Numbered from the stretch's first letter, positions 40,428 to 51,281 are shown. The stretch is DNA of 64,000 nucleotides from an uncultured Candidatus Saccharibacteria bacterium (GCA_937903325.1 CALCZR010000058.1:193034-257033), one strand, 5' to 3'. Made by a program: numbers and translations. The notes: a model not told the origin generated them from the letters alone.

Positions 40428-43031
40428 TTAACGTTTCTTGCCCTGTTTTCGTCGTTTACGTTCTGCTTTGTGTGCTTTTTTGCGTTTGTTTGCAGTCGTA
40501 ACTTTCTTACTACCACCCTTAGGAGCATTAACATCTCCGACAAAGTCTTCTTCGGTAAATTCATCTGCTTCAATAATCTTGTCCGCATTATCGACAGACT
40601 GGCGAGCAGCGCGAGTTAGTTCTGTTTCAACAGGAGCATTGTTAACATCTGCTGGTTCTGCATTGAAGACTGCCCGCATAACGTCATGTCGCAGAGTATC
40701 CTGCATTTCTTCGAACATGTGCTGACCTTGGCGACGGTACTCTACCAACGGGTCACGCTGTCCAACACTAATCCAGTGAATACCTTCACGGAGGTGATCC
40801 ATATTCTCGAGGTGCTGCATCCAGAGGTTGTCGAGAATCTGCAGGTAGATATCTCGCTCGATCTTGCGCATTGATTCTTCGCCAAACTCTTTGACACGCT
40901 CTTCGTAGAGCTTTTTAGCTTGTTCTAGTAGTGCCTCTTCAAACTTCTCTGCTGGAGTATCAAACAGCTTATCGAGTGTCTTTTCGCTGAATGGGAAGAC
41001 TTCTTTTAGGAGTGCTTCGTACTTGTCAGTAGTAGCCAAATCAGAAGCGGCAAGTACTTTTGCTTCTTCTTCAATGTATAGCTTAATACGCTTACTGATA
41101 TCGGTCTGGTGGAGGATTTCACGGCGCATGGCATATGTTGCCTTACGGTGACGGTTCATAACATCGTCGTATTGCACCACGTTCTTACGCTGGTCGAAGT
41201 TGTGACCTTCCACCTTCTTCTGGGCACCCTCTAGGCTCTTGCTAATAATACGGTTTTCAATGGGAGTTTCGTCGTCTACATTGAGTCGCTCCATAACACC
41301 GGCGATACGTTCACCACCAAAGATACGCATTAGGTCATCTTCAGTACTGACAAAGAACTGAGTTACACCAGGGTCACCTTGTCGACCAGAACGTCCTCGA
41401 AGCTGGTTATCAATACGTCGTGACTCGTGTCGCTCTGAACCAAGTACGAATAGTCCACCAAGCTTCTTTACTTCTTCACTAAGAACAATGTCAGTACCAC
41501 GACCGGCAATGTTCGTAGCCAGCGTTACTGCACCTCGTTCACCTGCTTTAGCAACAATAGCTGCTTCACGTTCGTTATTCTTGGCGTTTAGTACCTGGTG
41601 TGGAACACCTTGCTTATCCAGCAAACGTCCTAACTCTTCGTTCTTCTCAATAGAAACTGTACCAATAAGTACGGGCTGGCCCTTTTGGTGTAGTACTTTC
41701 ACTTCCTGAGCGATGGCCTTAAACTTACCAGCTTCGGTCTTGTAGATACGGTCAGATCGGTCGATACGTGCTAAACCTCTGTTAGATGGGATATCCAGAA
41801 CGTCTAACTTGTAGATCTGATGGAATTCTTCGCTTTCTGTCTCTGCTGTACCGGTCATACCAGCCAGCTTCTCGTACAAACGGAAGTAGTTCTGGAAGCT
41901 AATGGTCGCCAGTGTCATAGACTCTTCTTGTACTTCTACACCTTCTTTGGCTTCAATTGCCTGGTGGAGACCTTCGTTATAGCGACGACCCTTTAGGAGG
42001 CGTCCGGTGAATTCGTCCACGATAACCACTTCACCATCACTGGTAACAACGTAGTCTTTATCTCGTTTAAACAGTGCTTCGGCTTTTAGAGCCTGATCTA
42101 GGTGGTAGATATTCCTAATGTTGTCGCTTCCGTACAAACTATCTATACCAAGTGTCTTCTCGATGTGTTCAACGCCTTCGTCGGTAAGCACGGCAGCCTT
42201 ACGCTTCTCATCGATCTCGTAATGCTTCTCAGCCTTGAGGCCGCGAGCTATCTTGGCAAACTGGGCATAGGCATTTCCACTGGTCGCGGCTGGTGCAGAA
42301 ATAATGAGTGGCGTTCGCGCTTCGTCAATAAGAATGGAGTCGACTTCGTCCACGATGGCAAAGTGCAGATCCCGCTGGCGGAGCTGGTCAAGCTCACGCA
42401 CCATGTTGTCTCGGAGGTAGTCAAAGCCAAATTCGTTATTCGTGCCATAGGTAACGTCAGCAGCGTAGGCTTCTTGTCGAGTACAAGGTTTTAGGTGGCG
42501 GAAACGTTCGTCTTCGTGCGCTTCGTTAGTAAAACTAGCATCATAGATATATGACTCATCTGCAATGATCACACCAGTAGTCAGACCCAGGAATCCATAT
42601 ACCTGACCCATCCAACCAGCATCACGCTGGGCTAGATAGTCGTTAACGGTCACCACGTGTACGCCCTTACCAGTTAGTGCATTCAGATACACGGGTGCCG
42701 TAGCCACCAAGGTCTTACCTTCACCGGTCTTCATTTCGGCCACACTACCTTCGTGCAAGGCCATACCACCGATTAGCTGTACGTCGAAGTGACGCTGCCC
42801 AAGCGCACGGGTTGCTGCTTCACGAACTACCGCAAAAGCATCTGGCAGGATCTTATCAATAGCTTCTTTTTCAAGACGCTTCTTGAGCTCAGCAGTCTGT
42901 TCTTTTAATTTCTTGTCAGACAGCTTTGCATACTTGTCTGCTAGGGCATTAATGTCCTTAACTCGTTTTCGCAGGCGTTTGACGGTCTTTGCCTGAGGGT
43001 CACCTAAAACTTTCTTAAATACCTTATTCAT
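40428..43031 (-). CDS. secA: preprotein translocase ATPase SecA
   Basis: MKTGEGKTLV Walker A, DEVDSILIDEARTPLIIS, 867 aa with a basic C-terminal tail. Confidence 0.95.
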   Translation of the reverse strand: MNKVFKKVLGDPQAKTVKRLRKRVKDINALADKYAKLSDKKLKEQTAELKKRLEKEAIDKILPDAFAVVREAATRALGQRHFDVQLIGGMALHEGSVAEMKTGEGKTLVATAPVYLNALTGKGVHVVTVNDYLAQRDAGWMGQVYGFLGLTTGVIIADESYIYDASFTNEAHEDERFRHLKPCTRQEAYAADVTYGTNNEFGFDYLRDNMVRELDQLRQRDLHFAIVDEVDSILIDEARTPLIISAPAATSGNAYAQFAKIARGLKAEKHYEIDEKRKAAVLTDEGVEHIEKTLGIDSLYGSDNIRNIYHLDQALKAEALFKRDKDYVVTSDGEVVIVDEFTGRLLKGRRYNEGLHQAIEAKEGVEVQEESMTLATISFQNYFRLYEKLAGMTGTAETESEEFHQIYKLDVLDIPSNRGLARIDRSDRIYKTEAGKFKAIAQEVKVLHQKGQPVLIGTVSIEKNEELGRLLDKQGVPHQVLNAKNNEREAAIVAKAGERGAVTLATNIAGRGTDIVLSEEVKKLGGLFVLGSERHESRRIDNQLRGRSGRQGDPGVTQFFVSTEDDLMRIFGGERIAGVMERLNVDDETPIENRIISKSLEGAQKKVEGHNFDQRKNVVQYDDVMNRHRKATYAMRREILHQTDISKRIKLYIEEEAKVLAASDLATTDKYEALLKEVFPFSEKTLDKLFDTPAEKFEEALLEQAKKLYEERVKEFGEESMRKIERDIYLQILDNLWMQHLENMDHLREGIHWISVGQRDPLVEYRRQGQHMFEEMQDTLRHDVMRAVFNAEPADVNNAPVETELTRAARQSVDNADKIIEADEFTEEDFVGDVNAPKGGSKKVTTANKRKKAHKAERKRRKQGKKR

Positions 43032-43142
43032 TCGCTACCAGGCCTCCACATCCATGCAGTCAATAAATTTGTTGATTAGCAGCTTATATTGTAACGCACT
43101 TCTTGTGTCTTACAGAAGTAATTTTTACGTTAATCGAAAGTC

Positions 43143-43514
43143 TTAGTTTGCGTTAGTAACGGCTCGCTTAACGCGGGACAGAATACGGTGGTGCAACCGT
43201 CCCGCACCATGCTTGCCCTTATACTTAGTCAGCTGGTTCTTAAGCTTCTCTTCCACTACATCTACGGCAGCAAACATATTTACAGTCGTTTCTTTAGTTG
43301 CAATCACTTCTTTTGGCAGGTGCAGAATGACTTCACAAGTACAACTGACACGTGCCTTATTCTTCTGCTCTTTGAGCTTAACTTCGGCATGGGCAGATTT
43401 ACGGGCATGAGGAGACATGTACTGGTCGAGCTTACCGATCTTCTTCATGATATATTTGTTCAAATCTTCAGTAACTTCAGTATGAATACCGCTGACTTCT
43501 ATTTTTTGGATCAT
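43143..43514 (-). CDS. hpf: ribosome hibernation promoting factor (short form)
   Basis: S30AE pattern (ITGIH-like VSGIHTEVTEDL ... FAAVDVVEEKL); hpf-secA-prfB synteny. Confidence 0.8.
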   Translation of the reverse strand: MIQKIEVSGIHTEVTEDLNKYIMKKIGKLDQYMSPHARKSAHAEVKLKEQKNKARVSCTCEVILHLPKEVIATKETTVNMFAAVDVVEEKLKNQLTKYKGKHGAGRLHHRILSRVKRAVTNAN

Positions 43515-44806
43515 ATTTTTGCTCTCCCACCCATATATGGTCTTAATACTTCTGGTACAACTACGTCACCTTCCGCATTCTGGTAGTTCTCGAGGATCGC
43601 TACTGGCCCACGACTAAGCGGCAAAGCAGTGGCGTCATTAGTGTGGATTAGCTCCGCTCCGTTAGCTCGTCGAACACGTGTTTTTAGACGTCGCGCCTGG
43701 TAGTCAGTCATGTAGTCAGCAGTATGTGTTTCACGATACTTATCTTGTCCTGGCATCCAAGCGTTAATATCAACACCATGTGCATTAGGCTTACCAATAT
43801 CAGCCGTACACTTATTCATAACTTCGTACGGAATACCCAAGAGAGTCATGAGTTTTTCCTGGATCGCAATCATAAAGAGATGCTCTTGCATTCCAGCTTC
43901 GGCAACACCCAGACTTTCCATTTCAAGCTTATCGAATTGGTGCATACGGAAGATACCTTCCATATCTTTACCATATGTCCCAGCCTCTTTGCGGAAGCTG
44001 GTTGCATAGCCGATAAGGCGTATAGGCAATTCAGCTTCAGGGATAATCTCGTCGGCATACATACTTCCAAGAACGTGCTCGGCACTACCCTGTAGCCATA
44101 GCTCTTCACCTTCAATCTTGTAACGATCGTCACTAGGCTGCAAGCGATCCATAGCATCGTACATATCGGTGCGGATCATAAATGGAGGCAATACGGGTGT
44201 AAACGGTTTGTTGCTTACCTGAAGATTATTCTCCTGAATAACCTTATTAATAAAAGTCTTGTCTGAGAGCTTGTCCATTACGAACTGGATTATGGCAAAC
44301 TGTAGTTTTACGAGATCACCCTGGATGTACGCGAATCGAGTTCCGGTTACCTTGGCAGCACGTTCTTTATCAAGCCAACCTTTTGCCTCAGCGATTTGCG
44401 CATGATTTTTTGGCGTAAAATCGAATTTTGTTGGCTCACCAACACGCTTGGTAACTACATTCTCATCCTCACTAGCGCCAATAGGAACACTCTCAAGTGG
44501 CATGTTAGGTATATCTTTAAGGAGTTTAAGAACGTCCAATTCCAATGGTGCGAGCTTTTGCTCAAGCAGAGTAACCTCGTCTTTGAGATCCTTACCTTTT
44601 TCAATCTGCTCTGGGGTTGGCTTGCCTTGTTTCAGCTGCCCACTGTGGTTATTGCGCCGCGCACGGGCATCTTCGAGCTCTACTAGAACATTACGTCGAT
44701 CTTCGTCAGCTTTCAGAAGCGCCTTAACGTCAACTTTGTAGCCCTTTTGTTTTGCTTTTTCTTGGACTAGATCTGGATTTTCTCGGACAAACTGGATATC
44801 TAACAT
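43511..44806 (-). CDS. serS: serine--tRNA ligase
   Basis: MLDIQFVRENP N-terminus, coiled-coil arm, class II core; 431 aa. Confidence 0.95.
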   Translation of the reverse strand: MLDIQFVRENPDLVQEKAKQKGYKVDVKALLKADEDRRNVLVELEDARARRNNHSGQLKQGKPTPEQIEKGKDLKDEVTLLEQKLAPLELDVLKLLKDIPNMPLESVPIGASEDENVVTKRVGEPTKFDFTPKNHAQIAEAKGWLDKERAAKVTGTRFAYIQGDLVKLQFAIIQFVMDKLSDKTFINKVIQENNLQVSNKPFTPVLPPFMIRTDMYDAMDRLQPSDDRYKIEGEELWLQGSAEHVLGSMYADEIIPEAELPIRLIGYATSFRKEAGTYGKDMEGIFRMHQFDKLEMESLGVAEAGMQEHLFMIAIQEKLMTLLGIPYEVMNKCTADIGKPNAHGVDINAWMPGQDKYRETHTADYMTDYQARRLKTRVRRANGAELIHTNDATALPLSRGPVAILENYQNAEGDVVVPEVLRPYMGGRAKI

Positions 44807-44812
44807 AACCCT

Positions 44813-44820
44813 ATTATACC
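44813..44820 (-). promoter_or_regulatory. GGTATAAT -10-like element, 6 nt upstream of the serS ATG
   Basis: plus strand ATTATACC; ATG 44806..44804. Confidence 0.5.
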
Positions 44821-44840: not shown

Positions 44841-45632
44841 TTAAGATTTCTTATTTGCCTGCATAGCCTTCAGTGTTAGCTCGGTTCGCGCTCGGGCATA
44901 CGTACAGTAATCACACGGCCCACCCATGGCCGCCGTACCAACAGGAGGCATATCGCCTTCCATGCAGTCCTTCATTTTCTGCAGAGTGTCTTCTACCCAT
45001 GCATCACTGCCTTCATGTGGGAATACATTGGTACGAAACTCAACAACATCGTTAAAGCCGTCCTTGCTAGCGTCTCCATTAGCGTACACAAAATAGCCGG
45101 TATTACTAACACTGAAGCCGTTAGCCCGAAGTAACCATTGGTAGACTTCCATCTGTCGACGGTAGCTATCTTGCCAACCACCAACCGGACCAAGACTGGT
45201 AATCTCTTTATCTTTTGCCGTAGCCTTGTAGTCTACTACGATGAGCTCACCAGCGTCATTAACCCAGACATCATCTACAGCCCCAAAGACATGTAAGTTT
45301 GTTGGCTTATGCACCGTAAAAACTCCTACAAAGTTCTCACGCCAGGTATCCAGGTCTTTGTGGACATACGGCTTGGCAGCAATCTTAAACTTCACCTGTA
45401 GTGGATGCTGCGTACCGGCCGCACGATGCACATCAAACTCTTTCTTAAACAGTTCGTCTATCGCTTTATTAATATTGAACGGTGGACTACTTGGTCGAGT
45501 GATTTTGTGACGTACGTCGAGCCAGAAACAGCGCGGGCACTGGGTATACAGTTCAATCTTACTGCGGCTAACCTTAAATGGCGCCGTTTGACCAGGCGTA
45601 TACGGCCGGCTTCGTTCCCTCCAATAACTCAT
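44841..45632 (-). CDS. PD-(D/E)XK nuclease with Cas4/AddB-type cysteine cluster
   Basis: CPRCFW near the N-terminus, GAVDDV...VVDYKAT, QMEVYQWLL, C-terminal C...CDYC; ORF track extends to 45698 but ATG 45632 removes the overlap with rsmE. Confidence 0.6.
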   Translation of the reverse strand: MSYWRERSRPYTPGQTAPFKVSRSKIELYTQCPRCFWLDVRHKITRPSSPPFNINKAIDELFKKEFDVHRAAGTQHPLQVKFKIAAKPYVHKDLDTWRENFVGVFTVHKPTNLHVFGAVDDVWVNDAGELIVVDYKATAKDKEITSLGPVGGWQDSYRRQMEVYQWLLRANGFSVSNTGYFVYANGDASKDGFNDVVEFRTNVFPHEGSDAWVEDTLQKMKDCMEGDMPPVGTAAMGGPCDYCTYARARTELTLKAMQANKKS

Positions 45633-45636
45633 CCTT

Positions 45637-46320
45637 CTATTGTAGCAGTTTGGTAATTGCCGTGAGCGCCGCAGTTTCCGCCCGAAGCGTGAAGTCATGC
45701 AGGTTGAGGTGTTTAATCTCTAAGTCCTTAAACAGTTGTTTTTCGGTATCACTCCAGCCACCCTCGGGACCAATGAGCACACCGAGATCTTCGCCAGCTA
45801 ACTCACCTTCACTACTATCCTGTTCGCAGATATACAGAGTTGCTTTGTCCTGGTACTGCTCAATGGCTTTTGCCACATGCATAGTATCTCGCACATTGGG
45901 GATGTCGCTCCGGCCGCATTGTTCGGCTGCTTCAATAACAATCTTTCGAGCACGTTCAATGTTAAAGCCTGTCTTTTCAGAGCGATCTGCTAGCAGTGGA
46001 ATAAAGTGACTAACTCCTAATTCGGTGGCCTTTTGTAATACCCAGTCATTCTTGTCTTTCTTAAGCAAAGACCAGAACAAATAGATATTTTTACGCGGCA
46101 GTTGGCGCTTGTAGTCTGTAACCAATTCTAAATGTGCTTCGTCAGAACTCAGCTCTGTAATCTTGTAGAGACGGTCGTGTTCTAGACCATCAAACAATAC
46201 GATTTGCTGTCCTGCACGGAAACGTAGAACCTTGTTCCATTGGTGTAGCAATACTTCTTCCTTAAACCAGAAGTCATGTTCAAGTTTTAGTTCGGGTACG
46301 TAAAAGCGATGTATCTTCAT
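45637..46320 (-). CDS. rsmE: 16S rRNA (uracil1498-N3)-methyltransferase RsmE
   Basis: MKIHRFYVP N-terminus, C-terminal IGPEGGW SPOUT motif. Confidence 0.8.
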   Translation of the reverse strand: MKIHRFYVPELKLEHDFWFKEEVLLHQWNKVLRFRAGQQIVLFDGLEHDRLYKITELSSDEAHLELVTDYKRQLPRKNIYLFWSLLKKDKNDWVLQKATELGVSHFIPLLADRSEKTGFNIERARKIVIEAAEQCGRSDIPNVRDTMHVAKAIEQYQDKATLYICEQDSSEGELAGEDLGVLIGPEGGWSDTEKQLFKDLEIKHLNLHDFTLRAETAALTAITKLLQ

Positions 46321-47579
46321 TTCTTTTCTAGTATACAGAGTGTTTCAATGTGTGGCGTCCGTGGGAAGAAGTTGTAACAAACAAAGTCACGAATCGTGTA
46401 GGTATCCTGAAGTAGCGCTACATCACGAGCCTGGGTTGCTGGGTTGCATGATAAATAGCAGATTTGCGCCGGGCCTGCTTCAAGAATTCGCTCTATCACG
46501 TCTTTATGTAGACCGCTTCGTGGCGGATCAACAATAAGACAGCTATCAGGCGTTATGTACTCCAATGCTTGCTCAGTACTAGCTTCAATGACTTCAATGT
46601 CTTTATTGCCAGCATTCTTTTTGGCCATAGCCACGTTAGCTGAATCTAACTCCACCAAGGCCTTCGTGTCGCCAATTGGTATACCAATACTGCCGACGCC
46701 GGCGTACATATCTACTTTGTTTTTAGTGCCGTGACTTACCTGATCTATTTTCTGTAGTGCCAATTCAAAAACCGGTAAGTTAACTTGGAAGAAGCCAATA
46801 ACGTCATATTGCATCAAGGTTCCAAGCAGTGTGTCATCAAGTTTCGTATCACCAACTTCATACAGTAATTTGGTCGCCACTGACGCCGGACTTTTAGGGT
46901 TTGAGTGGTAAACTTTGATGCCACTAATGCCTTCTGGTAGTTTGAACTTTGAGAAGGTTTCAGGTTTCACAAATAGTGCAGCAACTACCTTCCCGGCCTG
47001 ATTACACCTTAGGATTACAGATTTTAGATCTCCAGCCCGAACACTATTTTTGTTCAATTCGACTAAAAGCGCCTGTGCTGCATCATTAATGGCTGGCAGC
47101 GCCAACGCACTACCCTGCACTATTTGCTTACGATGCGTGCCGCGATTGTAGAACGCATAGTGCAGTCCTTCGTCGTCTCCGTAGAACGAAAACTCAATCT
47201 TATTACGATACCCAAACTCATTGCCATCACTCACTACCTCAAAATCTGGCAATGTCACGCCTTCCCGCTTAAACGTCTCCTGCACAATGTCGTGCATGGC
47301 AATATGCTCTGCGTTAAGGGTCATATTCTGCCATGGAGATGTTGCAAGATAGATCGATTCCTTTGGCTCGATGCGCTCAGCAGACGCCTCTAGAATCTCT
47401 TCTGCAATACCTTCAACAAAGTCTTTCTTTCGCTTCGTAAGGAGCGCCCTAACTTGCTCACTTGGCAACGCATTCCATATAAAGGCCTTGCGTCCATCTG
47501 CTAGCGTGCCGAATCCTTGGCCACCGTGAACCAATTTCTCAATAGCTAGTTCTTCATAAATTGGTGTTTTTTGCTTCAT
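46317..47579 (-). CDS. RNA (uracil-5)-methyltransferase, RlmD/TrmA family
   Basis: VDPPRSGL and YLSCNPATQARD motifs. Confidence 0.8.
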   Translation of the reverse strand: MKQKTPIYEELAIEKLVHGGQGFGTLADGRKAFIWNALPSEQVRALLTKRKKDFVEGIAEEILEASAERIEPKESIYLATSPWQNMTLNAEHIAMHDIVQETFKREGVTLPDFEVVSDGNEFGYRNKIEFSFYGDDEGLHYAFYNRGTHRKQIVQGSALALPAINDAAQALLVELNKNSVRAGDLKSVILRCNQAGKVVAALFVKPETFSKFKLPEGISGIKVYHSNPKSPASVATKLLYEVGDTKLDDTLLGTLMQYDVIGFFQVNLPVFELALQKIDQVSHGTKNKVDMYAGVGSIGIPIGDTKALVELDSANVAMAKKNAGNKDIEVIEASTEQALEYITPDSCLIVDPPRSGLHKDVIERILEAGPAQICYLSCNPATQARDVALLQDTYTIRDFVCYNFFPRTPHIETLCILEKK

Positions 47580-48046
47580 TAGATCTCAATCTCGGTTATA
47601 GAAGCCTGACTAGGAATAAAATGTTCAGGGTCTGATTGGCCCAGTGCGGTTAATAGTGCTGCGATAACAAGACCATGCGTTACCCAGATACGTTCTTCTG
47701 GTAGATTCCGTAGAATGGCTTGAGCTGCTTCTATAGCTTCTTTGGGAAGCTTACCTTGCTCTACACCTTCTTGCGTTCTCTTTGGATCACCAGTATTTAT
47801 CTCATCTATTATTTTATTGACGTTTAGATCCGTAAAACCTGCCAAACGCGCTGTTTCTTGTGTCCGAATAAAGTCAGAAACAGCTACAGGCTGACTGAAG
47901 TCTATACCTCGTTTTACCAACTCTTGCTTGAGTTTGGCTGCCTGCTTCCTTCCCGCTTCATTGAGAGGTGCGCCATGCTTACCCTGCAAGGCCCGTGTAA
48001 GTCGATTGGCGTCAGTTGCAGCGTGTCGAATAAGAAGATATTTCAT
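47579..48046 (-). CDS. histidine phosphatase (phosphoglycerate-mutase-like) family protein
   Basis: LLIRHAATDAN (RHG-type catalytic His) and a downstream THG; 155 aa. Confidence 0.6.
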   Translation of the reverse strand: MKYLLIRHAATDANRLTRALQGKHGAPLNEAGRKQAAKLKQELVKRGIDFSQPVAVSDFIRTQETARLAGFTDLNVNKIIDEINTGDPKRTQEGVEQGKLPKEAIEAAQAILRNLPEERIWVTHGLVIAALLTALGQSDPEHFIPSQASITEIEI

Positions 48047-48052
48047 GTTCGA

Positions 48053-48874
48053 CTACGGACGGAGGGTACCGAAGAATACCTGCCATGCAAGCGCTGTTTT
48101 AGCTACCAAGCTTAAGATCATATAGACACGTTCACCGTATAGGTAGTTAGCCCATTGCCCCTTCTTGGCGTACTGCAGATACATATTAACTGCAAAGCTA
48201 GAGAAGAATACGAACATACTTCCGTAGATAAAGTATACGAACGTTGGAATGCCGCCAGAACCATATGCGTTAGCGCCAATTACGTAGATAGCGAACACGA
48301 TCCATGGCACTATACCAGCAACACAGCCAAGGTTGTAGGTAATCCAGTTGGTCTTCTTTGCTCCTTGGTTTGTAAGTTCCATAACCAACCCCATGCTATT
48401 CATGAGAAGATCTAAGATAAAGATCATAAGAAGTGCTGAAAAGTCGTACACGCCGCTTAAGAGTGCAATAGCCACCATCATGACACTGGCGCTGAGGCCA
48501 TATTCAATCCAACGAGCTTTGTTAATCCCCTTCTTGAGATCTGCTTCGTAGGTTTTACGATACTTTGTTGCAATTACAGCGTGAGCAATCGCTGACATAA
48601 AGAAGAAGGTCGCTACGAGATAGGCCAAGTTGACGTTGAAAATGTTATGTATAGCAGGAGCTAGTACCGGCTTCTCGGCGATCTTAGATGCTGCAGTGTC
48701 CTGTGTAAGGAACGTTGTATGTACGGGCCATGAATTAGCTTTACTGAGTACCAGTACAAGGATACCTTGCACTGCGTGCAGAACTGCAAGCCACTTGTTC
48801 CATGAGTTAAGTGAGTTTGGTGTAATGGTGAGCGGTGTTTTTTTGCGTAATTTCATGTCTGCACTATACCACAT
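48053..48874 (-). CDS. heliorhodopsin
   Basis: 7 TM; RWIEYGLSASVMMV, GCVAGIVPWIVFAIYVI, NYLYGERVYMILSLVAKTALAWQVFFGTLRP match heliorhodopsin 48C12 as recalled, including the Schiff-base Lys and counterion Glu; likely true start is ATG 48856. Confidence 0.85.
   Translation of the reverse strand: MWYSADMKLRKKTPLTITPNSLNSWNKWLAVLHAVQGILVLVLSKANSWPVHTTFLTQDTAASKIAEKPVLAPAIHNIFNVNLAYLVATFFFMSAIAHAVIATKYRKTYEADLKKGINKARWIEYGLSASVMMVAIALLSGVYDFSALLMIFILDLLMNSMGLVMELTNQGAKKTNWITYNLGCVAGIVPWIVFAIYVIGANAYGSGGIPTFVYFIYGSMFVFFSSFAVNMYLQYAKKGQWANYLYGERVYMILSLVAKTALAWQVFFGTLRP
48863..48870 (-). promoter_or_regulatory. GGTATAGT -10-like element, 6 nt upstream of the internal ATG 48856 of the heliorhodopsin ORF
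   Basis: plus strand ACTATACC. Confidence 0.4.
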
Positions 48875-48913
48875 AATAGCCGTCCCGAAGATGTTATACT
48901 GGGCGTAAGCACT

Positions 48914-49582
48914 ATGAAACCAAAACTAGCTATCCCCCAACGCAACTCCCTGAACTATAACGCCACCAAGAAGAACAAGCGCTCACTAAAATCGAAGCTT
49001 GTGCTCATAATCTTAGGACTAATCGCTCTCGGTAGTTTTACCTTACTGGCACTCCCTTACCTGCCTCGGCTCCGCTATCTCATATTCAAACCAAAGATAG
49101 ATGCCACGTCATACCAACAAGCTGCTCAGTCGACAAAGGAAGGTAAAGAAGCCCCTATCGACAACGAAGCTCAAAAGCCCGGTAACCGCCTAGTCCTACC
49201 CGGTATTGGTGTCGACACCCAGATCATAGACGGCCGGAACATTTACGTTATCGGCAAGAACCAGGGAGTCTGGCGCGAGACTGGGAACATCGACCCCACA
49301 CAAGAAGGTAACATTGTCATTGCGGGACATCGCTTCCTTTACACCGCTACGAATGGTGGCTGGTTCTACAACCTCCCGGAGCTCCAGAACGGCCAGAAAA
49401 TCTATATTCGCTGGGACAGTAAAGTATATGAATATGAGATCTACAACTCTAAAACAGTTCTACCAACCCAAGTAGATATACGAGATACCGATCCAGATGT
49501 TCCCAAGAAACTCACGCTGTATACTTGCTACCCTCTCGGAAGTACTGCTAAGCGATTCGTTATTGAAGCCAAGCAACTTTAG
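48914..49582 (+). CDS. sortase-family transpeptidase
   Basis: N-terminal TM anchor, IAGHR (His), TLYTCYP (TLxTC Cys), C-terminal R. Confidence 0.8.
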   Translation: MKPKLAIPQRNSLNYNATKKNKRSLKSKLVLIILGLIALGSFTLLALPYLPRLRYLIFKPKIDATSYQQAAQSTKEGKEAPIDNEAQKPGNRLVLPGIGVDTQIIDGRNIYVIGKNQGVWRETGNIDPTQEGNIVIAGHRFLYTATNGGWFYNLPELQNGQKIYIRWDSKVYEYEIYNSKTVLPTQVDIRDTDPDVPKKLTLYTCYPLGSTAKRFVIEAKQL

Positions 49583-49620
49583 CACAAGCAGTTGATCCTA
49601 TCTGTTAGACGCGGTATCCT

Positions 49621-50448
49621 GTGCCTATGTCAGTACCAAACTACGAACACTTATTCAATCCTCTGCTCGAGGCGCTTAGGAAACTTGGCGGTTCTGCCAC
49701 AATCGAAGAACTCGAATCTGAAGTGTCTATAATTCTTGCTCTGAGCGAAAAGGACATCAACGAACTTCATAGAGGGAGTCGAACCAAACTTTCTTATCGC
49801 CTAGCCTGGGCCCGGACCTATCTCAAACGTTATGGATTACTCGAAAACTCAGCTCGTGGTGTTTGGTCATTGACTGACAAAGGAGAGAAAACCAGTAAGG
49901 TCGACATAAAAGTAGTACAGCAGACCGTCAGGTCTCTGGATAAGAAACAAACCGGGACCGCATCTTTCACTGAAGATAGTCTTGTAGACGAATGGGAAGA
50001 AAGACTTCTTGCAGAGCTGCAAAGCGTATCTCCTGCAGGTTTTGAACGCCTCTGCCAAAGACTTCTGCGTGAAGCCGGGTTTATAGATGTCGACGTTACG
50101 GGTCGCCCCGGAGATGGTGGCATAGATGGCATTGGGACTATACGTATCAATCTCATTAGTTTTAGAGTGATCTTTCAATGCAAACGATACAAAGGAAGCA
50201 TTTCCTCTCAACAAATACGCGAATTTAAAGGTACTATGTCCGGGCGAGCTGAGCGAGGCCTATTTATAACAACGAGCACATTTACCAAGGACGCCCGAGG
50301 TGAAGCCAATAGAGACGGGTCTACCCCCATCGATCTGATCGACGGCAAACGACTCGTAGAACTCATGAAGGAATATCAGCTAGGCGTTACCGTAAAAACC
50401 ACGGAACAAATAGATATTCAGCCCGAGTGGTTCAAAAGCTTCCACTAA
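49621..50448 (+). CDS. mrr: Mrr-type (type IV, modification-dependent) restriction endonuclease
   Basis: N-terminal winged-helix Mrr_N-like region; catalytic core GDGGIDGIG ... FQCKRY ... LFITTSTFT. Confidence 0.8.
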   Translation: MPMSVPNYEHLFNPLLEALRKLGGSATIEELESEVSIILALSEKDINELHRGSRTKLSYRLAWARTYLKRYGLLENSARGVWSLTDKGEKTSKVDIKVVQQTVRSLDKKQTGTASFTEDSLVDEWEERLLAELQSVSPAGFERLCQRLLREAGFIDVDVTGRPGDGGIDGIGTIRINLISFRVIFQCKRYKGSISSQQIREFKGTMSGRAERGLFITTSTFTKDARGEANRDGSTPIDLIDGKRLVELMKEYQLGVTVKTTEQIDIQPEWFKSFH

Positions 50449-50975
50449 GCTAGTAGCTTCTGGAACTTCTGGCGTAGTTTAGCGAGCTTCGGATTAATAA
50501 CCACCTGGCAATACCCGGCTTCAGGATGTTTCTGGAAATAGTTCTGGTGTTCATCTTCTGCTGGGTAAAACACCTCAAGCTGCTTCACTTCAGTTACTAT
50601 TGGATCTTCCCAAAGCTTGGCCACTTCTCTGAGAGACGTATTTATAACCGCCTCTTGCATAGCATCAGTGTAGTAGATAGCCGAGCGATACTGACTTCCT
50701 TCGTCAGCTCCCTGTCGATTTAATGACGTAGGGTCGTGCATAGCCCAGAAAATGTCTAGTATATCTTCCAGGCTGATCTTGGAAGAATCAAAAGTAACTT
50801 TCACTACTTCGGCATGACCAGTATCGCCGCCAGCTACCGCGTAGTAGTGCGGATCTTTTGTATTGCCACCGGCATACCCAGATATGACTTCAGTAACACC
50901 GTCTACGAGACGGTAGCCGGCATCTAAGCACCAGAAACAACCGCCTCCGAGTACAATGCTCTCTTGTTTTGCCAT
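50445..50975 (-). CDS. msrA: peptide methionine (S)-S-oxide reductase MsrA
   Basis: GGGCFWC active site, GHAEVV. Confidence 0.9.
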   Translation of the reverse strand: MAKQESIVLGGGCFWCLDAGYRLVDGVTEVISGYAGGNTKDPHYYAVAGGDTGHAEVVKVTFDSSKISLEDILDIFWAMHDPTSLNRQGADEGSQYRSAIYYTDAMQEAVINTSLREVAKLWEDPIVTEVKQLEVFYPAEDEHQNYFQKHPEAGYCQVVINPKLAKLRQKFQKLLA

Positions 50976-50978
50976 GAG

Positions 50979-51281
50979 CTACTCCGTAACAGCAACGTCA
51001 CGCCAGAACGCAACATAGTTTGAAAAGTCTTTTTTAACCTGGTCGATACCTGATTTTAAGGGTTCTGGGTAACTCCAGGCATTGTCTTGACTCTGATCAT
51101 CGCCTTTGCCTATGTTAAAGTACTGGCAAACACCTTTCCATGGACAAGTATATGGTGTTGGGCTTTTACTGAGGAACTCTTGCTTTACTGAACTCGGTGG
51201 GAAATACCAATTCCCTTCGATATAGATGAGATCTTTTCTATCTGCTTCTGCAATTACTTGGTCTTTCCAAACTGCTTTCAT
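50979..51281 (-). CDS. DUF427-domain protein
   Basis: 100 aa; YIEGNWYFPP and CPWKG motifs typical of DUF427. Confidence 0.65.
   Translation of the reverse strand: MKAVWKDQVIAEADRKDLIYIEGNWYFPPSSVKQEFLSKSPTPYTCPWKGVCQYFNIGKGDDQSQDNAWSYPEPLKSGIDQVKKDFSNYVAFWRDVAVTE

Follow-up and report, generated by a model that had tools for sequence, protein, structure and literature searches.

A histidine phosphatase gene behind a heliorhodopsin gene in one Saccharimonadales lineage, probably a recent insertion into a conserved housekeeping string

In an uncultured Candidatus Saccharibacteria bacterium, the heliorhodopsin (HeR) gene is directly followed by a gene for a minimal histidine phosphatase. This phosphatase is probably a recent insertion into a conserved string of housekeeping genes headed by HeR, and not the sign of a conserved functional partnership. 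The two genes are neighbours in a single Saccharimonadales species-level lineage, represented by the genome analysed here and one sister strain. Where the phosphatase gene sits is therefore only weak evidence that light regulates it through a partnership with HeR. The DNA analysed, called the window below, is the whole stretch of 64,000 nucleotides taken from that bacterium (GCA_937903325.1 CALCZR010000058.1:193034-257033).

The gene string and its heliorhodopsin

These genes belong to a long and dense run of housekeeping genes, all on one strand, in a Saccharimonadales (CPR) genome. The minus strand carries 64 of the 72 ORFs of the window, and genes on the same strand are separated by a median of 20 nt. 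Coding density reaches 94% and 39% of the same-strand junctions measure 10 nt or less, so that tight spacing is normal here. The five genes described in the earlier note, from HeR to a nuclease, are all found on the minus strand where it had placed them (Table 1), and the junctions it reported (+6, -1, -4 and +4 nt) can be read straight from the sequence. TCGAAC (6 nt) separates the HeR stop codon, TAG, from the phosphatase ATG; phosphatase and methyltransferase overlap by 1 nt in TAATG, methyltransferase and rsmE by 4 nt in ATGA; and AAGG (4 nt) lies between the rsmE TAG and the nuclease ATG at 45632.

Table 1. Features of the heliorhodopsin region, in window coordinates
Feature	Position	Strand	Basis or remark
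Upstream context (sortase, Mrr-type endonuclease, MsrA, DUF427-like gene)	48914..51281	both	Pfam and NCBIfam matches
DUF427-like gene (Pfam NTP_transf_9)	50979-51281	-	Pfam/NCBIfam
MsrA	50445-50975	-	Pfam/NCBIfam
Mrr-type endonuclease, strain-specific	49621-50448	+	Pfam/NCBIfam
Divergent sortase	48914-49582	+	Pfam/NCBIfam
Extended -10 promoter-like element TGgTATAGT	48863..48871	-	ends 6 nt before HeR ATG 48856
HeR, 267 aa from conserved start	48053..48856	-	PF18761, NCBIfam HeR; longest ORF from 48874
Minimal histidine phosphatase (His_Phos_1 branch), 155 aa	47579..48046	-	PF00300
RlmD/TrmA-family RNA m5U methyltransferase, 420 aa	46317..47579	-	PF05958, E 9e-21
RsmE-family 16S rRNA m3U methyltransferase, 227 aa	45637..46320	-	TIGR00046, PF04452
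Extended -10 element TGcTACAAT	45639..45647	-	inside rsmE 3' end; ends 6 nt before nuclease ATG
Stand-alone PD-(D/E)XK (RecB/Cas4-like) nuclease, 263 aa	44841..45632	-	PF12705 (PDDEXK_1), E 8e-14
Backbone continuation (serS box, serS, hpf, secA)	40428..44818	-	ORFs
TATAAT -10 box of serS	44813-44818	-	ends 6 nt before serS ATG; in 13/16 relatives
serS	43511-44806	-	ORF
hpf	43143-43514	-	ORF; 4-nt overlap with serS
secA	40428-43031	-	ORF

HeR matches both the Pfam profile PF18761 (E 8e-88, 294 bits, cutoff 26.7) and the NCBIfam HeR model (NF038020, 296.5 bits, cutoff 100), and its alignment to the solved structure of TaHeR (6is6) has E 1e-63. The retinal lysine is present in SLVAKTALAWQ, where SLVAK aligns to the lysine of TaHeR (SxxxK, last helix). 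The counterion glutamate of helix 3 is present as well, RWIEYG aligning to RWFEYS of TaHeR, with the counterion position indicated by the E-to-D mutant entry 7clj. Both columns are invariant across 31 HeR homologues, and the homologues bear the names Saccharibacteria or Saccharimonadales. Homology to the TaHeR and 48C12 structures suggests an inverted topology (N-terminus inside), retinal binding and no ion pumping.

Downstream, two of the earlier labels have to be narrowed. While one of the two putative rRNA methyltransferases is an RsmE-family enzyme (m3U1498; TIGR00046 152.6 bits vs cutoff 41, PF04452 E 6e-41, PUA_4 domain), the other is best described as RlmD/TrmA-family, a level at which rRNA and tRNA methylation are not distinguished: it scores 148.7 bits against TIGR00479 RlmD (cutoff 183.55) and lies above the cutoff of Pfam tRNA_U5-meth_tr. 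It is called RlmD below. The Cas4-like nuclease is a PD-(D/E)XK protein, but the name Cas4 does not hold, its profiles scoring below their cutoffs (TIGR00372, 35.9 bits against 65; PF01930, 21.8 against 22.7); no cas genes were found among the Pfam-annotated neighbours of the nuclease in the loci examined. The nuclease gene belongs to the Saccharimonadales core: it adjoins serS at all loci examined and has at least 7894 homologues at E<=1e-30, the best 120 being all at least 70% identical. The order PDDEXK-SerS-HPF-SecA recurs in about 35 related loci, and relatives devoid of HeR retain HAD-(RlmD)-nuclease-SerS-HPF-SecA. The HeR slot heads a backbone that also exists without it, which offers a natural presence/absence comparison for the function of HeR.

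A phosphatase restricted to one lineage

Membership of the 155-aa protein in the histidine phosphatase family, as previously proposed, is borne out by its match to His_Phos_1 (PF00300, E 1.5e-20, 74 bits vs cutoff 21.7). Residues R7, H8, R61, E82 and H124 are invariant among 24 homologues. The structural model (pLDDT 94.1), searched with Foldseek against the PDB, matches TTHB049 and Rv3214 with TM 0.66-0.69 and probability 1.0, and the closest folds in the PDB are those of small phosphatases of the PhoE/CobC type. The protein thus has its fold in common with TTHB049 (1v37/2p77), Rv3214 (2a6p), PhoE (1h2e) and CobC (6e4b), and its catalytic set, Arg-His ... Arg ... Glu ... His, in common with small branch-1 phosphatases. 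It differs from the latter in an identity of 24-27% only, a shorter chain and a reduced cap region, and its motif is RHA where most homologues have RHG. Assignment to a specific family (CobC, GpmB, PspA) was rejected, the best NCBIfam match being TIGR03162 with 40 bits vs a cutoff of 162.9; no SixA match was found among the NCBIfam models, and all equivalog scores are far under their cutoffs. With a dN/dS of 0.08 against the sister strain, the phosphatase looks catalytically intact and under purifying selection; it seems to be functional, though a small phosphatase of a generic kind. Its invariant catalytic residues, its dN/dS and its occurrence in several samples together argue that it is not junk and that it could hold a lineage-specific role.

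Compared with the sister strain, the phosphatase gene has a dS of 0.84, and the genes on either side have 0.23 (HeR) and 0.29 (RlmD). Its GC3, 0.327, is the lowest of the 72 ORFs (0.452 +/- 0.051). The identity of its homologues falls from 88% directly to 59% for the next one. The phosphatase family is small: at E<=1e-30, a library of 1.84 billion representatives contains 48 clusters of it. HeR has 4095 at E<=1e-20 in a 90%-identity collection, two counts that differ in library and in threshold.

The idea that this phosphatase is a conserved partner of HeR does not withstand a comparison of gene order across genomes, the check that the earlier note had itself proposed: apart from the sister strain, none of the genomes examined has the pair. 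Of the 82 further HeR loci that were informative, one has the phosphatase directly behind HeR, that of the sister strain, whose HeR is 99% identical and whose junctions are those of the window. RlmD is the commonest gene directly downstream of HeR in the clade (17 loci; the gap is usually about 10-35 nt, and RlmD has no -10 box there); next in frequency come HAD (10), RsmE (4) and the nuclease (3), while 40 loci place HeR in unrelated contexts. HeR relatives at 82%, 78% and 74% identity all have RlmD directly behind HeR. At the loci of 80 species representatives, the phosphatase-family profile has no match within about 10 kb of HeR, even at E<=10, and tblastn with the phosphatase gives none at E<=1e-5 over at least half of the query; nor was a remnant found in the spacers by relaxed tblastn. 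Conversely, none of 14 other loci with phosphatase homologues has an HeR; homologues at 31-59% identity adjoin isochorismatase, radical-SAM or dUTPase genes. The HeR-phosphatase arrangement itself recurs on contigs from several samples.

The clade order is HeR, then mostly RlmD, rsmE, nuclease, serS, hpf and secA, and the phosphatase would have been recently inserted, or moved, into the short spacer between HeR and RlmD. This location is probably just one where an accessory gene could settle harmlessly in a very compact genome. We infer insertion, rather than repeated loss, and likewise the absence of a functional link. Tight spacing and even overlap are the default in compact CPR genomes, and adjacency to HeR alone therefore cannot nominate a partner. 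Conservation across genomes is a needed filter for HeR partners, and one that does not retain the phosphatase.

Promoter-like elements and putative transcription units

A TAnnnT box lies 5-7 nt before the HeR ATG in 21 of 22 locus rows (HeR identity 63-99%, duplicate contigs of three taxa included), at exactly 6 nt in 18 of them, and is also preceded by TG in 20; the flanking bases vary between species. In the window this extended -10 element ends 6 nt before ATG 48856, and its conservation makes that codon, M7 of the longest ORF, most likely the true HeR start, instead of 48874 as given before. The conserved box thus also corrects the HeR start. Its spacing fits a leaderless HeR mRNA, with HeR putatively at the head of one transcribed segment. 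The accessible parts of two papers on Saccharimonadia and CPR heliorhodopsins (Chiriac et al., 2022, PMC9166423; Bulzu et al., 2021, PMC8612252) contain neither a leaderless-type HeR promoter nor the HeR-RlmD arrangement.

The extended -10 element of the nuclease is found in 20 of the 22 locus rows and is retained whether the site is coding or intergenic (for example in L004, L006 and L098). Within the RlmD coding sequence, TATACT at 46330-46335, 9 nt before the rsmE ATG, is a candidate promoter element present in 9 of 14 relatives. No conserved -10 box was seen upstream of the phosphatase or of RlmD. Across the window, -10 boxes are enriched at gene starts (p=0.002). With boxes in front of HeR, of the nuclease and of serS, and none in front of the phosphatase or RlmD, the string would likely divide into three units, HeR-phosphatase-RlmD(-RsmE), the nuclease, and serS-hpf, a division suggested by motifs only. 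HeR plausibly heads a unit, as the earlier note had it; the single five-gene operon it described is not retained, the nuclease having its own box. Co-transcription of HeR and phosphatase is plausible. Lacking a promoter-like element, the phosphatase gene would most likely be transcribed when RNA polymerase reads on from the HeR promoter, and its translation would be coupled over a short range. More generally, the -10 box may be useful as a sequence-based way to divide Saccharimonadales gene strings into transcription units.

Other readings of the locus

HeR might be tied to its conserved neighbours, either in a light/oxidative-stress unit with MsrA or through light-dependent co-expression of the methyltransferases and the nuclease. 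Of 79 loci, 21 have MsrA within the three genes upstream of HeR and 24 have the nuclease within the three downstream, and RlmD directly behind HeR in 17 loci lacks its own promoter box. A role of HeR in oxidative-stress mitigation has also been proposed from context analyses, CPR bacteria included (PMC8612252, PMC9166423). We nevertheless consider such a tie unlikely. HAD-(RlmD)-nuclease-SerS-HPF-SecA exists in the absence of HeR, the nuclease has its own promoter box, a divergent sortase lies between MsrA and HeR in the window's lineage, and 40 of 82 HeR loci show quite different contexts; a gene order common to related genomes is expected from descent alone.

Heliorhodopsins do bind and modulate the products of adjacent genes (PMC9529153, PMC11109279), and the premise from which a light-regulated phosphatase had been proposed is sound in that respect. 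Such operons have been established by experiment for glutamine synthetase, the partner of AbHeR (PMC9529153), and for the OmrDE ABC transporter, the partner of OcHeR (PMC11109279). As in these cases, the window has HeR on the same strand as, and directly beside, an enzyme gene with which it is presumably co-transcribed. There, however, measurements showed binding and modulation by light, and the partner falls into one of the ten neighbour groups that recur across HeR-bearing genomes; the phosphatase of the window is confined to one species-level lineage. The captured phosphatase could still be a lineage-restricted cytoplasmic client, co-expressed with HeR and modulated by light through it as are the glutamine synthetase and ABC transporter of Actinobacteria. 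The 6-nt gap, the common strand, the lack of a promoter box, the intact catalytic set, the dN/dS of 0.08 and the published precedents (PMC9529153, PMC11109279) would all suit such a client, as would other phosphatase-type genes just behind HeR elsewhere (HAD_2 in 10-12 species, PAP2 in one). HAD, however, is a backbone gene present without HeR too, and therefore lends no independent support. The adjacency is not conserved beyond one species-level lineage, phosphatase homologues are never close to HeR (14 loci), no phosphatase figures in the ten groups of genes published as frequent neighbours of HeR (PMC11109279), and a literature search found no HeR-phosphatase link. We regard this client as very unlikely, and nothing beyond adjacency favours a lineage-restricted partnership. 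It is highly improbable that, in one species, a captured minimal phosphatase placed on a leaderless HeR promoter became a light-modulated client; were it so, this would be the first heliorhodopsin light control of a phosphatase activity, and HeR would gain partners through gene insertion.

It is extremely unlikely that the phosphatase was ancestral to its slot and repeatedly lost in relatives, instead of inserted once: deletions do occur downstream of HeR, where RlmD, RsmE and HAD vary, but none of 80 species representatives retains the phosphatase, which would require many independent losses, relaxed tblastn recovers no remnant in the spacers, its GC3 is atypical, and homologue identity falls from 88% to 59%, those homologues lying elsewhere in their genomes.

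The HeR locus is ordinary, with little to pursue. Set beside the Saccharimonadia and CPR heliorhodopsins of PMC9166423 and PMC8612252, the window HeR is likewise canonical, with SxxxK and a nearby MsrA, and its locus is one more example in which nothing material differs. Missing retinal synthesis has already been documented in Saccharibacteria with type-1 rhodopsins (Jaffe et al., 2022; PMC9296517). There, as presumably here, the rhodopsin occurs in a group without a blh/crt pathway, the chromophore being presumed to come from host or environment; those rhodopsins, however, are type-1 proton pumps, whereas the window has an HeR. The region behind HeR is variable, with RlmD, RsmE and HAD coming and going. 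On the other side, in the sister strain and relatives, MsrA directly abuts the sortase, without Mrr.

Gene content and spacing of the string

The five minus-strand ORFs that the earlier note had described are present in the ORF calls on the window, and all four junctions between them match the sequence as read (see table). The first encodes a heliorhodopsin (HeR) that, judged by its sequence, is canonical: it matches PF18761 with an E-value of 8e-88 and the NCBIfam HeR model with 296 bits (cutoff 100), aligns with the solved TaHeR structure at E 1e-63, and retains both the retinal lysine (in SLVAK) and the counterion glutamate (in RWIEYG). The 155-aa protein encoded behind it matches His_Phos_1 (E 1.5e-20), the aligned part being the N-terminal half only of the 194-position profile. 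Two rRNA methyltransferases had been proposed to follow. This holds for the second, a member of the RsmE family (152.6 bits against a cutoff of 41), but the first can be named only as an RNA m5U enzyme of the RlmD/TrmA family (hereafter RlmD): its Pfam match exceeds the cutoff and its RlmD equivalog score, 148.7 bits, stays below the cutoff of 183.55. The nuclease matches PDDEXK_1 (E 8e-14), and Cas4 models score below their cutoffs. Beyond it the same-strand run extends through serS, hpf and secA. HeR and phosphatase share one reading frame, with TAG-TCG-AAC alone between them (window 48046-48055); a read-through fusion would put the phosphatase on the extracellular C-terminus of the HeR and is probably without meaning.

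Genes, junctions and promoter-like boxes of the string, in window positions (counts are locus rows, including duplicate contigs of three taxa)
Feature	Position	Sequence	Conservation of box
HeR box	48863-48871	TGgTATAGT	TAnnnT 5-7 nt upstream in 21/22 rows (6 nt in 18); upstream TG in 20
HeR/phosphatase junction		TAG, TCGAAC, phosphatase ATG	
Phosphatase gene	47579-48046 (-)		
Phosphatase/RlmD junction		overlap in TAATG	
RlmD gene	46317-47579 (-)		
RlmD/rsmE junction		overlap in ATGA	
rsmE gene	45637-46320 (-)		
Nuclease box	45639-45647	TGcTACAAT	20/22 rows
rsmE/nuclease junction	nuclease ATG at 45632	TAG, AAGG, nuclease ATG	
Nuclease gene	44841-45632 (-)		
serS box	44813-44818	TATAAT	13/16 rows

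Such tight packing is the rule in this DNA. Coding sequence takes up 94% of the window, and 64 of its 72 ORFs share the minus strand. Genes on the same strand are separated by a median of 20 nt, and 39% of such junctions span 10 nt or less; spacing is therefore no distinguishing mark of the HeR cluster.

Neighbourhoods of the heliorhodopsin and of the phosphatase

The premise that HeRs bind and modulate partners encoded next to them is accurate (PMC9529153, PMC11109279): an HeR binds and regulates an adjacently encoded glutamine synthetase (PMC9529153) and an adjacent ABC transporter (PMC11109279). The further proposal, that the phosphatase is a conserved, light-regulated partner of this kind, failed the synteny test. 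The 80 loci tested come from different species, encode HeRs with 49-75% identity and include up to 10 kb of flank on either side; they belong to species-representative genomes that are nearly all Candidatus Saccharibacteria or Saccharimonadales, the names also borne by the organisms of the HeR homologues. The phosphatase gave zero tblastn matches in them at E<=1e-5 with at least half of the query covered, and loosening the search to E<=10 added two noise matches and nothing else. A profile of 24 family members, which retrieves the window protein at 3e-75, matched none of their ORFs even at E<=10, and tblastn at the same threshold found no remnant of the gene in the HeR-RlmD spacers of relatives. 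In the closest relatives the order is FtsX, a DUF427-like gene, MsrA, sortase (reverse strand), HeR, RlmD, RsmE, nuclease, SerS, HPF and SecA. Exact-protein look-ups, which date the presumed insertion, show that in the next relatives (HeR 82%, 78% and 74% identical) RlmD lies directly behind HeR, after 58, 13 and 14 nt, respectively. Across 82 informative loci the gene directly behind HeR is RlmD in 17, a HAD hydrolase in 10, RsmE in four, the nuclease in three and the phosphatase in one, this last being the sister strain (HeR 99%, RlmD 95%, phosphatase 88% identical), where the junction spacing is that of the window. Unrelated contexts account for the other 40; the neighbours annotated in some of these are of mixed kinds (PAP2, DUF5684, DUF1295, Bact_hydrolase, a CRP-type regulator, an ABC ATPase, an SDR and unknowns).

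The converse search gives the same picture. The family of this phosphatase is small. A word-indexed search returned 40 clusters; when all 1.84 billion representatives were searched exhaustively with a profile, 48 passed E<=1e-30 and 188 passed E<=1e-10. Homologues at 52-58% identity lie after isochorismatase, between radical-SAM genes or after dUTPase, and no HeR was found in the flanks of these three loci or of 11 metagenome loci with homologues at 31-58% identity. The adjacency is therefore limited to one species-level lineage. Within that lineage the arrangement is stable: eight contigs, drawn from several samples, encode the identical phosphatase protein, and its neighbours are the same in the two places shown. 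Samples that contain this species include SRR6231148, ERZ650287 and SRR28520273, and the longest contig given for the phosphatase cluster measures about 425 kb.

The genes behind the HeR also occur without it. The nuclease, a core Saccharimonadales gene, has at least 7894 homologues at E<=1e-30, and five loci were sampled through them. In three, HeR heads the string and the next gene is RlmD, RlmD and HAD, respectively; in the other two (nuclease 72-73% identical) the order is HAD, a TM2 protein or RlmD, nuclease, SerS, HPF, SecA, M16 peptidase and RF1, with no HeR. On this housekeeping backbone HeR is thus an optional first gene, and descent explains the genes behind it. A phosphatase theme behind HeR, with HAD_2 in 10-12 species and PAP2 in one read as non-homologous replacement, had been entertained. 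The HAD genes of the two HeR-less loci are orthologous to those behind HeR (profile E 1e-71 to 1e-72), and at L013, another related locus, HAD comes after RlmD; the sole hint of such a theme therefore falls, HAD being a backbone gene independent of HeR.

Several features of these loci may be recorded here. The HAD protein is a Gph/PpaX-like hydrolase; in one Saccharimonadales subclade its gene precedes that of RlmD or the nuclease (compared: L105:6329-6967 and L106:5810-6442 with L025:10834-11454). At loci lacking HeR this gene carries a -10 box, which is missing at L104, where HeR ends 4 nt ahead of it. In two species (L062 and L065) an ABC ATPase and FtsX/MacB-type permease pair is encoded directly behind HeR, resembling the published HeR-ABC transporter operon group; the window HeR lies downstream of such a pair. 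Three contigs with HeRs 54-58% identical to that of the window (L035, L052, L063) are binned as Methanofastidiosum, Dormiibacterota or Woykebacteria MAGs; that of L035 is merely 1.6 kb long and may be mis-binned. At L104:11700-14309, on a 1.12-Mb contig, secA is broken up into four or more ORFs, probably by long-read frameshift errors and not as a pseudogene.

Upstream, MsrA lies within three genes of HeR in 21 of 79 loci. This agrees with the published proposal of a link between HeRs and oxidative stress (PMC8612252, PMC9166423), and could equally be inherited gene order. In several species MsrA directly adjoins HeR, both genes having the same orientation. In 10 of 79 loci the three genes upstream include a DUF427-like one (Pfam NTP_transf_9); window 50445-51281 holds MsrA and this gene.

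Promoter-like boxes and predicted transcription units

When the upstream regions of orthologous genes were aligned across species, an extended -10 element, TGnTAnnnT, proved to be conserved; it ends 6 nt ahead of the ATG, a spacing that is a signature of leaderless transcripts. The nuclease box is retained both where its site is rsmE coding sequence and where it is intergenic. The longest ORF would start HeR at 48874; the box, homologue alignments and relatives of 267 aa favour instead the ATG at 48856, which gives a 267-aa protein, equal in length to the homologues P0002 and P0004. Before window gene starts, -10-like boxes at 5-9 nt occur in 15 of 72 cases, against 9.3% of all ATGs (p=0.002). 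Neither the phosphatase nor RlmD has an extended -10 box ahead of it in the species aligned, and the RlmD of relatives holds the same promoter-less place behind HeR. In the case of rsmE, 9 of 14 relatives share a TATACT 9 nt before the gene, which is ambiguous since it sits within RlmD coding sequence. Terminators inside the string were rejected: a scan found no more terminator-like sites than in shuffled controls, and none at any junction.

We infer from these boxes that the string may be divided into HeR-phosphatase-RlmD(-RsmE), nuclease and serS-hpf units. The view that HeR heads an operon thus survives in part: the phosphatase, having no box of its own, is probably co-expressed with HeR, but a single five-gene operon is not supported, the nuclease having a box of its own.

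More widely, strong -10 boxes (TATAAT, TACAAT, TATAGT, TATACT, often with TG upstream) stand 6-9 nt before many starts with no Shine-Dalgarno sequence, including those at window 12192, 22596, 37533 and 39078. The HeR, nuclease and serS boxes are conserved in roughly 20 species. This suggests that leaderless transcription may be widespread in this Saccharimonadales clade.

The phosphatase as a probable accessory gene

R7, H8, R61, E82 and H124, which make up the whole catalytic set of a branch-1 histidine phosphatase, are invariant in 24 homologues. The AlphaFold model (pLDDT 94) matches small PhoE/CobC-like phosphatases (TTHB049, Rv3214; TM 0.66-0.69, 24-27% identity), and no NCBIfam equivalog model comes near its cutoff. 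A SixA-like phosphoprotein phosphatase, considered for the small size, was set aside, as no SixA profile matched and the best folds are PhoE/CobC-like. Compared with the sister strain its dN/dS is 0.08, which indicates a functional gene under selection. Its dS of 0.84 makes it the most diverged gene of the block (flanking HeR 0.23, RlmD 0.29), and its third-position GC, 0.327, is the lowest of the 72 window ORFs (0.452 +/- 0.051). Composition alone is a weak sign; together these features are consistent with an accessory gene that was acquired or relocated recently. Traces of mobile-element insertion were rejected, since no direct or inverted repeats bracket the gene, short chance matches only.

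We therefore think it quite likely that a generic small phosphatase was inserted, in this lineage only, into a permissive slot behind a promoter. A lineage-restricted, light-regulated partnership of HeR and phosphatase would draw on their plausible co-expression and stable adjacency; set against the HeR loci of other species, the literature searched, which links no HeR with a phosphatase, and the ten frequent HeR neighbour groups listed in PMC11109279, none of them a phosphatase, it is very improbable. The locus is ordinary, one further example of the Saccharimonadia HeRs already catalogued (80 occurrences in PMC9166423). As to the chromophore, Saccharibacteria with type-1 rhodopsins lack blh and likely take up retinal from hosts (PMC9296517).

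Divergence from the sister strain (L095) is uneven along window 44841-50975, with dS values of 0.47 for MsrA, 0.68 for the nuclease, 0.69 for RsmE and 0.75 for the sortase, a mosaic that points to recombination inside the block. An Mrr-type restriction endonuclease gene (Mrr_N and Mrr_cat; window 49621-50448, plus strand) lies between sortase and MsrA; in the sister strain and all related loci it is absent and MsrA abuts the sortase; apparently this is a defence-type gene inserted in the one strain. Finally, serS exists as two allele types, about 45% identical, swapped among close relatives (window 43511-44806; L095:5487-6614). The SerS of the sister strain is 47% identical to that of the window and groups with those of the related loci L016, L002 and L023, its flanking genes being 95-99% identical, which suggests that recombination replaced serS, the breakpoint lying where the nuclease gene and serS meet.
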